Shown piece after piece: positions 4,476 through 42,078 of a DNA stretch of 45,651 bases. Under the pieces are notes generated by a model that made no database searches, was not told where the DNA came from, and was given only the letters and a program-made list of their open reading frames with translations. How positions within the stretch are numbered: the first letter of the stretch is position 1; each line of letters starts with the position of its first letter. Source of the DNA: a virus (lineage: Duplodnaviria > Caudoviricetes); IMG/VR virus record IMGVR_UViG_3300037478_000106, positions 1 to 45,651 of that record; one strand, written 5' to 3'. Both the position numbers and the translations under genes were made by a program.

Positions 4476-4516
4476 GTATAACCCCTTCCAGAGAATCCTT
4501 CTCCCGTAGATGTCAT

Positions 4517-4778
4517 CCCTGATCAGGCTTTCCCTGGTAGGTAGGCTGTGTGTTAGCCTACCTACCTTCCCCCCCTAACCTCCATGGGTGTGTTGTTCCA
4601 AAGGTGTTAGTTAGGGTATTTGAAGTGTCGTCCTGTTGTAGGAAAAAAAATAAGAGAGAGACTCACACTTCAGAGCTTCATACTCATAACCCACGCAACA
4701 CACCTCCAAAAGGTAGGGGGGGGAGGTAGTTAGGTCAACTCCCCACCTACCTCCCTACCCCAGAAAGATTGGATCGGG
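4517..4778. repeat. Long nested imperfect inverted repeat in non-coding DNA (candidate origin, packaging site or ncRNA)
   Basis: 4557..4595 complements 4696..4734; TGAAGTGT/ACACTTCA inner pair; perfect 12-bp hairpin at 4536..4566; central A-tract. Confidence 0.7.
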
Positions 4779-4788
4779 TATAGATCCG

Positions 4789-4827
4789 AAAAAAGACCGA
4801 AGCGCGGATGTTCTCTCGCTCCGATCT
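4789..4827 (-). terminator. Intrinsic terminator after gene 4865..5305
   Basis: AGATCGGAGCG...CGCTTCGGTCT stem running into a T6 tract on the minus strand. Confidence 0.75.
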
Positions 4828-4836
4828 CTATTCCCA

Positions 4837-4864
4837 AGTGTCACATTACGATACAGTGCGGTGG
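4837..4864. repeat. 28-bp inverted repeat, left arm (3' UTR of gene 4865..5305)
   Basis: 25/28 complementary to 5346..5373. Confidence 0.9.
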
Positions 4865-5305
4865 TTACTTCGTGAGGTTCTGAGCGATATTCAGTGCGAT
4901 GTCGCTTGGCGTGCCCATGTCCACGAGCTGACCAGCGTAGGCCTGCTGGTACTCGGTCCAGTCGTCTCCGGACATCTTCGTTCCGTCCGGCAGCGGGTAC
5001 ATGGTGGTGACCTTGCCAGCACGCCGGATGCCCTTGAGCATAGCGTAGTGGGCTTCCTGGATCTCCTCGACCTTCTTACCGACCATCGCGCGGTTCAGGC
5101 CCTGGGACTTGACCCGCAGGGACGTACCGTCCGACATGGCAAGCAGGCACTCCCCGCCGAAGTGATTCAGGAAAGCAGCGAGGTCCTCGATAACGGCAAT
5201 CTGCGCATTATCGGTAACGGTGGCCTTATCGGAGTTGTTCGGCCCGTTGCGCTTGGCAACGGACTCAGTCCGAAAGACGATTCCGTACTCGTTCCAGTTA
5301 CGCAT
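4865..5305 (-). CDS. Hypothetical protein, 146 aa; paralogue of 41565..41990
   Basis: GGAG RBS before the ATG at 5305; shares the MxDGTSxRVxxQ motif. Confidence 0.8.
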   Translation of the reverse strand: MRNWNEYGIVFRTESVAKRNGPNNSDKATVTDNAQIAVIEDLAAFLNHFGGECLLAMSDGTSLRVKSQGLNRAMVGKKVEEIQEAHYAMLKGIRRAGKVTTMYPLPDGTKMSGDDWTEYQQAYAGQLVDMGTPSDIALNIAQNLTK

Positions 5306-5345
5306 GATGTTTCTCCAGTGTAGGGGATTGTATGACGTAGCTCCG

Positions 5346-5373
5346 CCCCCGCACTGTATCGTAACGCGACACT
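5346..5373. repeat. 28-bp inverted repeat, right arm (5' UTR of gene 4865..5305)
   Basis: 25/28 complementary to 4837..4864. Confidence 0.9.
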
Positions 5374-5437
5374 CAGTTGTCAATCAACGTTGTGGCTATG
5401 GACTGTCCATATGCTGCTTCGTCCATACCACACAACC

Positions 5438-32972: not shown

Positions 32973-35371
32973 CAGTCCTCCCACTTGGAAATGTCTCTGA
33001 GCCCCATCGGATTAGTGAGGCCATCCTTACTCCTGTTTCCCCAGTTGTAGCCGACCTTGGAGTCAGTGGGGATAAGGATCTGATGCCCATTGCACTCGAA
33101 CGGAATCGTCATGCACTCGGTCATCAGGTCATTGACTTCTCGTACATGTTCCTTAGGGCACTGAACCAGGATCGAGTCATGCACCTGCAACATCAACTGA
33201 GCCCTAAGATCTGCTCTACTAATCTGCACTCTTTCATAGATATTCGCGACGGCTTCGTTGCACAGCCAACCAATAGTGCTCTGAGGAATGTATGAGTATC
33301 CCTCTCTAGACAACTTGTCATCCATTCGGCTAAAGAACGTTCGCTTCCGACCAAAGGGGGTGGTAAGTGTACGGGAGTAACGGAGCTCCTTATCAACTGT
33401 TGCCCAATAAACTGATTTGTGGTTAGGGTGAAGGAGCCAGAATCCGTCGATGACTTTTCGGGCAAGAGATTCAGTGATAGTAATGCCAGTTTCTTCGGCA
33501 TCTTTATTTACAACCTCCACGAAGCGGCGAGCGTCCATGCCATAGTTAACTGCATGGCGGACTTTCTTGCCGAGGTATCGTTGAACATCAGTGACTTGAT
33601 CTAGCGGGATACCAAAGATCTTTGCCGCGGTCTCCTTGTGAATGTCTCGCGAGGGATCGGCAAAGAGTTCCAGCAGGTACCTATCGTTAGCCAGTGCTGC
33701 TACCACCCGTGCTTCAGCCTGAGAGAAGTCGCGATAGATGAAGACCATGCCAGGGTCTGCAATGAACATCTCACGTAGGTTCTCAGGAATGTTCTGCAGG
33801 TTTGTTCCCGACCCATAAATCGAAGCGCGGGAAGAAAGCCTACCACTACGAGTACCAGTAATATCAAACGAACAGCGCATCCGACCGTCGCTATCGATTG
33901 CCACATCAAGGTACGTTTCAATGAGTTTCCTCCGCTGACGGATTTTCAAGATAGTCATGAGCAGAGGATTCGGATGCTTAGCTGACAACTTAATCAGCGC
34001 ATCCTCATCTGCAGTGACTGTCTGTGTACCATTAGGCCGCTTCTTGTACTGCTTAGGCAGACCAAGCTTATCGTACACAAGCCACTTCACATCCGGTGAT
34101 GAAGCATTGATTGACTGGCCAGCGCTCTTGTCTAGGAATGACTGGAGGTTGTCAAGCTCTCCAGTGATCTTCGCTCGAATGGCATCGCGCTTAGGTATAT
34201 CAACCTTAATCCCATGCCTAGTCATCGACATGAGAGGTTCGACGAGACTCATGGAGTGCCGAAGCACACCGAGGTTTCCCATCTCACGGAGTTCTTTTTC
34301 CTGCACATCTCGGATCTCTCGTGTAACTACAGCATCGAGCGCATTATAGCGCCAGAACATCTGGAGGTCATTCGTCTTTTTCCAGATCTTGCCATCGTCC
34401 TTATACCTCGGCTCACGTGTGTAGAGAGACGTCTGGAACGCCAGCCCCTTGGCGAAGGCTGCCGTGCGTTTAGTCTTCGTGTGATTCGAGAGTTCATCCT
34501 CACCACGAGCGCACTCTGCGTACAGTGCATGGTGCCCAAGCATCGTATCCCAAGCGAAGTTGTTGACCTCATAACCTTCGTCACGAAGAACGGTCGTATC
34601 GAAGGTGCCATTCTGCATAACCTTACGAACAGGCGAAGCAAGTAAGGTGCGAATGGCATGTATCTTGAGCGGATGGTCGCAAGGGATTGTGACAGCTCTT
34701 TCTGCCGTATCTGAAAACCCAACACAAGAGAGCCTCCATCTGCCATGCCCATCTTCCACGCACTCAATATCGACTCCGAGCCATTCAGCCTGGAGGAGTT
34801 CGAGAACGAGACCATCGAGGAGTTCAACTGCTGGGTCAAGGATTAATTCCCTCTTAGGCCGGATGATCTCCGGATAGGTGGATTCCTCAGCTACACGACG
34901 AAGATCAAACTCAGCAACCGCTTTGTAATCGTATAGCCGCATGACCTGCGAAGGATGGTATGTGCCTACAGTCTTGAGCCCTGGTACAAAAGTAGACTCA
35001 AGGATAGACCCACGCCAGTTATTGATGCCTGCCTTCTTCGTCATGACACGAAGAGGTTCAGCCCCTAGTGCAGTTACGATGTTAGGCTTGATTTCTACGA
35101 GATCCTTCTTCAGCTGAAGCAAGCCACGCATCAGGTGGACCTGACCATCCTTGCTAGAGAACCACTTGAACTGTCCCCCAGGAGGCTGATGATGACAGAT
35201 ATTCGTAAGGAAGACTTCTCGGCGAGAGATGCCAGACCGCTCAAGCATACGGTCCAGCAACTCACCCGAGTACCCTACGAATGGTCTACCCTGTTTGACC
35301 TCGTTAAGGCCAGGCGCATCACCAAGGATGACAATCTTTGCATCACGAGGACCTTCAGAGTAGATAGCCAT
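32972..35371 (-). CDS. polA: Family A DNA polymerase with an N-terminal family-4-like uracil-DNA glycosylase domain and a 3'-5' exonuclease
   Basis: UDG GDAPG...E...GRPFVG.SG...TYHPS; Exo VDIE, NGTFD, YNALD; pol TRSGRLSS, DFSQAEAR, K...YG, VHDS. Confidence 0.95.
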   Translation of the reverse strand: MAIYSEGPRDAKIVILGDAPGLNEVKQGRPFVGYSGELLDRMLERSGISRREVFLTNICHHQPPGGQFKWFSSKDGQVHLMRGLLQLKKDLVEIKPNIVTALGAEPLRVMTKKAGINNWRGSILESTFVPGLKTVGTYHPSQVMRLYDYKAVAEFDLRRVAEESTYPEIIRPKRELILDPAVELLDGLVLELLQAEWLGVDIECVEDGHGRWRLSCVGFSDTAERAVTIPCDHPLKIHAIRTLLASPVRKVMQNGTFDTTVLRDEGYEVNNFAWDTMLGHHALYAECARGEDELSNHTKTKRTAAFAKGLAFQTSLYTREPRYKDDGKIWKKTNDLQMFWRYNALDAVVTREIRDVQEKELREMGNLGVLRHSMSLVEPLMSMTRHGIKVDIPKRDAIRAKITGELDNLQSFLDKSAGQSINASSPDVKWLVYDKLGLPKQYKKRPNGTQTVTADEDALIKLSAKHPNPLLMTILKIRQRRKLIETYLDVAIDSDGRMRCSFDITGTRSGRLSSRASIYGSGTNLQNIPENLREMFIADPGMVFIYRDFSQAEARVVAALANDRYLLELFADPSRDIHKETAAKIFGIPLDQVTDVQRYLGKKVRHAVNYGMDARRFVEVVNKDAEETGITITESLARKVIDGFWLLHPNHKSVYWATVDKELRYSRTLTTPFGRKRTFFSRMDDKLSREGYSYIPQSTIGWLCNEAVANIYERVQISRADLRAQLMLQVHDSILVQCPKEHVREVNDLMTECMTIPFECNGHQILIPTDSKVGYNWGNRSKDGLTNPMGLRDISKWED

Positions 35372-35586
35372 TAGACTTGATTCTCCGCACGCTTCGCCAT
35401 TGCCTTCTTAGCAAAGAACGCAGCTTCTTCCAGCTTAGTACGAACGATAGACATCTCACGACCGTCCGTACCGCAGATGTGTTCTAGGCCATCAAGAAGA
35501 ACACTGAAAGTATCTGCGATGTCAGTAGCTTTTTCCTTGCCTTGCGTGTTAAGCATGTGTACTGCAAACTCATCACGATGTTCCAT
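35371..35586 (-). CDS. Acb2/Tad1-like helical-hairpin protein (putative immune-signal sponge)
   Basis: F..H...REMSIVRTKLEEAAFFAKKAMA signature; 71 aa. Confidence 0.65.
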   Translation of the reverse strand: MEHRDEFAVHMLNTQGKEKATDIADTFSVLLDGLEHICGTDGREMSIVRTKLEEAAFFAKKAMAKRAENQV

Positions 35587-41366: not shown

Positions 41367-41395
41367 AATATAACACGAGGCGCGGTACTACGCAA
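41367..41395 (-). promoter_or_regulatory. Sigma70-type promoter for the replication/recombination operon
   Basis: TTGCGT-17 bp-TATATT with extended TG. Confidence 0.85.
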
Positions 41396-41406
41396 TAGCG
41401 GATAAA

Positions 41407-41426
41407 GATTTCCGTTAATGGAAAAG
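41407..41426. promoter_or_regulatory. Palindromic motif, copy 8
   Basis: GATTTCCGTTAATGGAAAAG, between the tRNA-like element and the promoter. Confidence 0.7.
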
Positions 41427-41428
41427 AT

Positions 41429-41493
41429 TGGTGACGCCGAGACTTGAACTCGGATGGGTCCTAACCGGCCCTAGCGTTCCGTACCTCGTCACC
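41429..41493 (-). ncRNA. 65-nt tRNA-like element with degenerate D and anticodon arms
   Basis: Perfect 7-bp acceptor GGTGACG/CGTCACC+A; T-arm CCGAG TTCAAGT CTCGG; only 33 nt between them. Confidence 0.7.
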
Positions 41494-41564
41494 AGCTGGT
41501 TCTATCGAGAAACCAGCAAGCTCCCTAGAGAAGTACCCACGGTGCTCTAGGCCACCCCCCTGGA

Positions 41565-41990
41565 CTAACCAGCCAGAGCTTCGAGATCCGCTTCGGAGAG
41601 CTCGCCAGACGCGATCTTCTCGAGGAACTTCGAGAGCGTATCGCCCGAGACCTTCTCGGAAGCCTTCTTGGCAGAGCTGGCCGCACGAGTCGTAGGCGTA
41701 GCAGCACCAACCTGCCGCTTGCCAGGCTTGAACTCGAGCTGCTTCGTGGCGATCTCGTCATCGGTCTTGCCGGTGACCTTCAGACGACGAGCGATGGACT
41801 GAGCCGACACGCGGATGGAAGTACCATCAGCCATGTCGAGAACACCCTGCTCCCCGTAGAACTCGATCATCTTCTGGGCATTATCCCAGACGAGAATCGG
41901 AACATCTCCGAGCGACTGCGTGCCCTTGGCGGTCTTGACTTCGTCGAACTCGAAGTGTGCGCCTTCTGGGGCTTGGACGGTGAGTGGCAT
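41565..41990 (-). CDS. Hypothetical protein, 141 aa; paralogue of 4865..5305
   Basis: AGGAG RBS; own promoter; strong codon bias; MADGTSIRVSAQ motif. Confidence 0.85.
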   Translation of the reverse strand: MPLTVQAPEGAHFEFDEVKTAKGTQSLGDVPILVWDNAQKMIEFYGEQGVLDMADGTSIRVSAQSIARRLKVTGKTDDEIATKQLEFKPGKRQVGAATPTTRAASSAKKASEKVSGDTLSKFLEKIASGELSEADLEALAG

Positions 41991-42049: not shown

Positions 42050-42078
42050 AATATAACATGAGGATCGCCTCTACGCAA
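42050..42078 (-). promoter_or_regulatory. Sigma70-type promoter for gene 41565..41990
   Basis: TTGCGT-17 bp-TATATT with extended TG. Confidence 0.85.

Follow-up and report, generated by a model that had tools for sequence, protein, structure and literature searches.

The stretch of DNA analysed here (the window) is a whole phage genome of 45,651 bp with a 145-nt terminal repeat, whose genes include those for terminase, portal, capsid, PolA, primase, a Sak4-like protein, and an exonuclease. The public DNA runs that contain this genome are sediment metagenomes, no RNA run was listed as containing it, and the element described below is covered without variant letters in the DNA contigs of run X2. 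INPHARED gave no relative by DNA or protein, no cultured relative was found, and the GTDB genomes gave no match for the 141-aa gene in front of the element or for a neighboring 22-nt motif. A TTCC..GGAA palindrome recurs at gene boundaries of the window in about ten operator-like copies (at 364, 4459, 5716, 7787, 14050, 19671, 27459, 31537, 37147, and 41410); a loose pattern gives 12 matches. Elsewhere in the genome, an ORF on the minus strand (35371–35586) resembles the Pfam Acb2/Tad1 hairpin domain (E 1.5e-8), and its product is, by this resemblance, likely an anti-defense nucleotide sponge.

The locus of interest is read on the minus strand. It begins with a sigma70-like promoter, TTGCGT-17-TATATT (42050–42078), that would serve both the element and the 141-aa gene in front of it (41565–41990), a conserved phage gene to which no protein family or fold could be assigned. 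The stop codon of this gene is followed by a first predicted stem-loop (41519–41564, ends approximate), by a hairpin that ends 1 nt before position +1 of the element (41495–41517), and then by the element itself (41429–41493), which starts 71 nt past the stop. Behind the element come the 3' trailer A74-U75, which carries no CCA (41427–41428), a short U-run, and, 3 nt after the discriminator, a copy of the TTCC..GGAA palindrome with a presumed operator role (41409–41426, without strand). The next promoter-like site, for the downstream genes, lies at 41367–41395 (minus strand) and begins 34 nt after the element.

The element has the fold of a tRNA top half. Its acceptor stem (41493–41487 with 41436–41430) is formed by 7/7 Watson-Crick pairs, its canonical T-arm (41453–41437) has a 5-bp T-stem and a TTCAAGT loop, its discriminator is A73 (41429), and 33 nt lie between the 5' acceptor strand and the T-arm. 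RNAfold predicted the acceptor, the T-arm, and a bulged GGGCC/GGACCC hairpin (z -1.95), and the D-region was unpaired in the centroid, with no stable D-stem. A 7-nt anticodon loop with U33 is absent, and the acceptor pair 3:70 is U3-A70, not G3:U70. The bases after the discriminator are A74, U75, and C76, and hence no CCA is encoded, as is expected of an RNase Z substrate. Measured against a canonical tRNA, a 7-bp acceptor and a 5-bp T-arm with a TTCRANY loop are present, and a D-arm, a 5-bp/7-nt anticodon arm, and any ARAGORN or RF00005 call are absent. ARAGORN called neither a tRNA at the element nor a tmRNA in the window, the Rfam tRNA model (RF00005) gave no match up to E 10 on the 201 nt around the element, and the best Rfam resemblance was mascRNA with 22.3 bits (cut-off 42.5). 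The combination of a 7/7 acceptor and a T-arm with an interior of 25–60 nt occurred in 0/200 dinucleotide shuffles of the window. Lone T-arms numbered two in the window versus a mean of 0.12 per shuffle; two relaxed T-arm matches within window ORFs had no trailer U and were taken to be due to chance. These results agree with the first-pass annotation, which had described the acceptor, discriminator, T-arm, and 33-nt interior, the missing D-stem, the irregular hairpin, and the hairpin and palindrome on either side from the letters alone, and which had expected a pseudogene call or no call from tRNA finders.

The 141-aa protein has 123 homologues and no match among Pfam, PHROG, PDB-sequence, or Atlas families. 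Its AlphaFold model is confident (pLDDT 90), and the best fold match was the peptidyl-tRNA hydrolase domain 1j26 (Z 4.0, rmsd 4.3 over 80 residues). We rejected this likeness as within noise, and the GGQ motif is absent; a BFVD structure search with the protein gave no match at E<=0.001. The first-pass annotation had spoken of this gene as a paralogue, and the profile of the 141-aa family does match a second gene on the minus strand (4865–5383, E 1.5e-10), which tblastn had missed. No T-arm element lies behind this paralogue. As a side aspect, a 28-nt inverted repeat (4837–4864 and 5346–5373, 89% complementary) flanks the paralogue gene, and since it encloses the gene, the ends of the paralogue mRNA could pair into a long stem. 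The region behind the paralogue (4480–4870, minus strand) is non-coding and strongly structured (z -4.7, 0/100 shuffles); among its features are a 60-nt inverted repeat and a hairpin with a U-run behind it.

The window holds a second top-half element on the minus strand (590–637), which begins 13 nt after an AAA ATPase gene and has a 16-nt interior, a C1.A72 mismatch, and U74. Its best Rfam resemblance was again mascRNA (24.6 bits, cut-off 42.5). Five unselected viral contigs (L109, L132, L137, L166, and L079) also carry very small elements, about 40 nt long, each made up of a 6-bp acceptor, a GGTT-type linker, and a T-arm; these resemble the second element of the window.

For a comparison across relatives, an alignment of 111 homologues of the 141-aa protein was used to retrieve 70 loci, of which 52 remained, plus the window, after the removal of duplicates and of loci with fewer than 150 nt downstream. 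Such alignment-based scans succeeded, whereas single-protein locus scans of viral contigs had returned nothing for the 141-aa gene or the AAA ATPase. A T-arm lies within 700 nt of the stop of the 141-aa gene in 48/53 non-duplicate loci, the window included, and the scan found none in the other 5/53 (L011, L022, L024, L041, and L059), although L011 has an atypical T-arm that is also followed by U74. Omission of five near-duplicates (L026, L037, L040, L052, and L065) left 43 non-redundant elements. The position is highly specific: the first 250 nt past the stop (13.2 kb covered) contain 37 strict T-arms, versus 6 in 299 kb outside 0–1500 nt and 0 in 366 kb of the antisense strand. ARAGORN made calls in 5/60 loci, three of them at the position of the element and each of these with an abnormal anticodon or T arm, and Rfam at the gathering threshold gave no match in 40 loci; these blanks are weak evidence, as the same filter missed a tRNA-like match in L028. 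Elements also occur behind other genes, namely the orthologue of the AAA ATPase gene (L011), an SSB-like gene (L058), and a 250-aa ORF (L050).

Among these relatives, the acceptor and T stems covary freely. An acceptor score of at least 6.5 was reached by 18/43 elements versus 2.2 expected from shuffled upstream sequence, and a score of at least 6 by 36 of the 43 versus 11.5 expected. Acceptor pairs 2–6 were paired in 179/180 cells, with several Watson-Crick types per column, and pair 7:66 was mismatched in 13/36; the column counts are inflated by the selection, in each case, of the 5' strand that paired best, a choice that the shuffle control for the scores applies equally. The 5' strand of L002 used in the acceptor, column, and trailer analyses is wrong, as it falls in an ORF, and this locus probably carries a minihelix. 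Mean identity of the top halves is 52%. The interior is free, with a length of 0–108 nt: at one end, L018 has a bare 12-bp minihelix at the position of the element (0-nt interior), as L050 has at another place, and at the other, L066 carries a near-whole tRNA whose anticodon loop has 8 nt (59.6 bits to the Rfam tRNA model), and the anticodon loop of L028 contains a long insert (51.8 bits). tRNA-type D-arms are retained in L058, L021, and L053; that of L058, which lacks normal anticodon and variable arms, is presumably of the leucine type. The likely origin of the elements is therefore in tRNA genes, in which selection on the D and anticodon arms probably ceased later.

Neither decoding nor amino-acid identity is under selection, given the free interior, the varied discriminator (A20, U13, C9, and G1 among the 43), the rare G3:U70 (4/36), and the lack of an encoded CCA (0/43); G is found at +1 in 25/36. 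In the window itself, a tRNA top-half fold without decoding capacity lies beside an mRNA end, as in a t-element. Top-half folds as such are not rare in viral contigs, since 24/245 T-arm matches from unselected contigs were uncalled, lacked CCA, and had a 6–7 bp acceptor, although some of these stems may be due to chance.

The strongest signal lies in the 3' trailer. U is present at position 74 or 75 in all 43 elements (positions 74–75 read CT in 12, AT in 11, TA in 7, TT in 6, TC in 4, and TG in 3), and U75 is commoner than U74 (29 vs 20). Two-base windows from position 77 onward contained U in only 13–20/43. As a control, we used 245 T-arm matches from unselected viral contigs, collected with two T-arm patterns, in which U74/75 occurred in 59/97 CCA-less tRNAs called by ARAGORN (Fisher p 6e-8 vs 43/43) and in 14/24 uncalled elements (Fisher p 8e-6). 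The trailer U is hence more strictly kept in the phage elements than in viral CCA-less tRNAs. The rule is of the either/or type, as the other U was always present when one was missing (p 5e-7). When mapped onto the protein tree, in which many branches are weakly supported, the U74/U75 states required 12 changes versus 14.4 for shuffled labels, and this scatter argues against a single inherited base. A -1:73 pair, which the window element also has, was commoner in elements with U75 only (14/21 vs 5/16, p 0.049), suggesting that the helix end sets the position of the U. Seventeen further T-arms in the same loci had the U in 11/11 cases with 5-bp stems (including one duplicate and one probable chance match) and in 4/6 with 4-pair stems. 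Shuffles showed more pairing at the first trailer bases than the elements did.

This trailer rule is consistent with selection for cleavage on the 3' side by a tRNA maturase of the host, and another U-preferring nuclease could also explain it. In work by Pellegrini and colleagues from 2012, RNase Z of B. subtilis was reportedly stimulated by a trailer uracil, a finding that concerns U74, whereas U75 prevails in the phage elements. Cleavage of CCA-less precursors by RNase Z, at a site after the discriminator, is described in two sources (PMC10424219, PMC8943300), and in one of them the B. subtilis enzyme was crystallized on a precursor with U74 (PMC8943300).

To judge whether the element is part of a longer transcript, we consider promoter-like and terminator-like patterns, all counted without a shuffle control. 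A promoter-like pattern lies upstream of the 141-aa gene in 30/43 loci, a terminator-like site lies between the stop and the T-arm in 4/43 and within 400 nt after the T-arm in 8/43, and a promoter-like site follows within 400 nt in 3/43, the window among them. Such sites being few, the element is situated inside a predicted read-through transcript in most relatives. The upstream 60-mers were slightly more stable than shuffles (22/34, p 0.03) and the downstream 60-mers were not (p 0.36).

The intergenic region behind the 141-aa gene often holds other structured RNAs in the relatives. L057 contains a GOLLD-like RNA (1948–2521, 100.8 bits, E 2e-25, below the 150-bit cut-off) that is situated in a 1.3-kb non-coding array alongside three T-arm elements, of which one falls within the match. 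A hammerhead-like core with a long stem III (weak Rfam match, E 1.6) was found about 160 nt past the stop in L022 and about 90 nt past it in L024, where it occupies the place of the canonical T-arm element of the relatives and is followed by a degenerate T-arm-like hairpin. An unannotated two-stem motif, whose loop reads GATA(C/T)AA and whose bulge reads ACTCCC, lies in most cases just upstream of the tRNA-like element, within 300 nt past the stop (L001, L003, L013, L015, L022, L026, L027, L029, L038, L049, L050, and others); 15 examples were aligned, and Rfam gave no match for it. A second unannotated motif has an invariant 16-nt core within a predicted fold of about 150 nt, 200–340 nt past the stop (L001, L003, L015, L026, L027, L050, L052, and L065), and an exact search of the GTDB genomes did not find it. 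The Twister L4 motif does not occur in the downstream regions.

The fold, position, covariation, free interior, and trailer rule of the element are observed in the sequences themselves. As the top half is kept while the middle varies, the element likely marks cut sites for tRNA trimming by the host and does not serve codon reading. On balance, we favor the reading that it is a punctuation mark similar to a t-element, at which the host's RNase P and its RNase Z, or a comparable maturase, would cut. A transcript started from the promoter at 42078–42050 would extend through the 141-aa gene into the element, host RNase P would cut at +1 and give the upstream mRNA a defined 3' end, which the hairpin at 41495–41517 would then cap, and RNase Z or a similar maturase would cut after the discriminator and free the downstream RNA. 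In most relatives, this downstream RNA would comprise structured non-coding RNAs or replication-gene mRNA. An RNA of about 65 nt would be released and would receive CCA. For the 5' cut, extensive truncation of the substrate is tolerated by bacterial RNase P according to a review (PMC4919922).

In several points, this reading takes up the first-pass annotation and amends it. Its view of a non-decoding element that keeps the acceptor/T-arm stack, being neither a normal tRNA nor a decayed copy of one, is supported by the covariation, the free interior, and the lack of amino-acid identity among the relatives. It had proposed a signal that matures the 3' end of the upstream mRNA, and this part may stand, but a 5' cut is not the whole matter; with the strongest signal on the 3' side, the 3' cut matters too. 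The hairpin abutting +1 is real in the window, whereas a protective hairpin as a general feature of the relatives was not supported, as pairing at -1 to -5 upstream of +1 was no higher than in shuffles.

The main rival reading accepts the cuts and takes the released, CCA-ended small RNA as the selected product. It could act as an uncharged top-half decoy or sponge for host proteins that bind the acceptor end or the elbow, with acceptor-end toxins or tRNA-processing enzymes as possible targets, or as a ligand of the 141-aa protein. The invariant trailer U shows that the 3' end of the element itself matters, and the trailer rule fits a decoy equally well and does not separate it from punctuation. 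Moreover, a strong promoter pattern of its own in 30/43 loci and a place among other non-coding RNAs would suit such a product. In this genome, the promoter right behind the element also favors a decoy: with a new promoter 34 nt away, a 3' cut is not needed for the expression of the downstream genes, and punctuation would gain little. Against a decoy, the elements share no sequence beyond the T-loop, as their mixed discriminators and rare G3:U70 illustrate, and a size from a minihelix to about 140 nt makes an unstable target. Anticodon nucleases cannot be decoyed without an anticodon arm, and the presence of elements behind an AAA ATPase gene, an SSB-like gene, and a 250-aa ORF shows that no single protein goes with all of them. 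Punctuation is favored by the free size, by the missing shared identity, and by the spread behind unrelated genes, and we regard a selected small RNA as the less likely of the two.

An uncut barrier or protein-binding site in the 3' UTR, for example an exonuclease block or a non-canonical terminator, would agree with the stable closed fold, with the rarity of terminator-like sites before the element, and with the short U-run behind it in the window. Most relatives have no U-tract, and such a role would not call for a canonical T-loop, a 12-bp stack, or a fixed U74/75, which makes it improbable. Still less probable is that the elements are decaying tRNA pseudogenes without present function. The near-whole bodies of L066 and L028 and the retained D-arms would be expected of pseudogenes, but under neutral decay one would not expect stems preserved by compensatory change at an identity of 52%, a U74/75 in every element, or clean minihelices, and the pseudogene reading appears largely refuted by the covariation. 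A miniaturized working tRNA, as the perfect acceptor and T-arm and the GTT in the middle hairpin might suggest, or a tRNA 3' fragment of an attP site is least probable of all, since a 7-nt loop with U33 is missing and the interior is unconserved and can be absent, and since a covarying 5' acceptor strand would not be retained in an attP copy and the scan of 60 window ORFs revealed no integrase.

Punctuation by degenerate tRNA folds is already known from organelles and vertebrate lncRNAs. According to Forner et al. (2007, PMC1920247), the t-elements of plant mitochondria are tRNA-like folds, degenerate but with the T-arm intact, that lie at the ends of mRNAs, are cut by RNase P and/or RNase Z, and receive a non-encoded C or CCA. 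The phage element likewise combines a tRNA-like fold and an intact T-arm with a place at an mRNA end. t-elements, as described there, are organellar and lineage-specific, with mapped ends, whereas the phage element belongs to a bacterial host, is conserved in position across diverged genomes, and is known from sequence; a genome with terminase, portal, capsid, and PolA genes is no mitochondrial setting. The mascRNA/menRNA family (RF01684) is, according to PMC4919922, a shortened tRNA-like unit at an RNA 3' end that is processed by RNase P and then RNase Z. It was the closest Rfam resemblance of both window elements, far below the cut-off in either case, but it belongs to a vertebrate lncRNA and has a fixed size and sequence, whereas the interior of the phage element is free. 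Canonical CCA-less tRNAs (RF00005) share the 7/5 acceptor-T stack, the T-loop, the G+1 bias, and near-whole forms such as L066 and L028, and differ in their D-stem, 7-nt anticodon loop, and identity elements, which the phage element lacks.

YrlA Y RNA is a tRNA mimic of bacteria and phages, and the RNA of M. smegmatis undergoes RNase P cleavage and obtains CCA (PMC4201824). The acceptor of YrlA is an internal stem-loop between T and D, whereas that of the phage element is formed by its two ends and is open. YrlA adjoins a Ro60 gene, and no TROVE match was found among 60 window ORFs and 68 ORFs from six related loci. The tRNA-like domain of tmRNA consists of an acceptor and a T-arm with a stemless D region, a layout that the phage element shares. 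PMC3985003 may be compared on this point. The window element has no G3:U70, tag frame, or pseudoknot region. By analogy, the element would work like t-elements and mascRNA, and it is, as judged from these comparisons, a member of neither, nor of tRNA, tmRNA, or YrlA. Searches of the open-licence literature in PMC and bioRxiv brought up no description of such tRNA-punctuation elements in phages, and the accessible parts of PMC8549757, PMC5449637, and PMC4810235 had nothing on a phage top-half element.

Standard tRNA finders miss these top-half elements. The trailer rule offers a sharp and cheap test in the form of a one-U mutation, and the trailer U might serve as a sequence signature of the 3' maturase in the host. 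The orthologous series amounts to a natural deletion scan of tRNA, in which only the 12-bp acceptor-T stack, the T-loop, and the trailer U were kept. Tentatively, this phage family may run a natural bacterial system of tRNA punctuation, in which a single strong transcript would combine the message for a protein of no known fold with a variable set of non-coding RNAs (GOLLD-like, hammerhead, and unannotated motifs), and tuned tRNA halves, reduced down to a 12-bp minihelix with a host-matched trailer U, would recruit RNase P and RNase Z to release the individual units.
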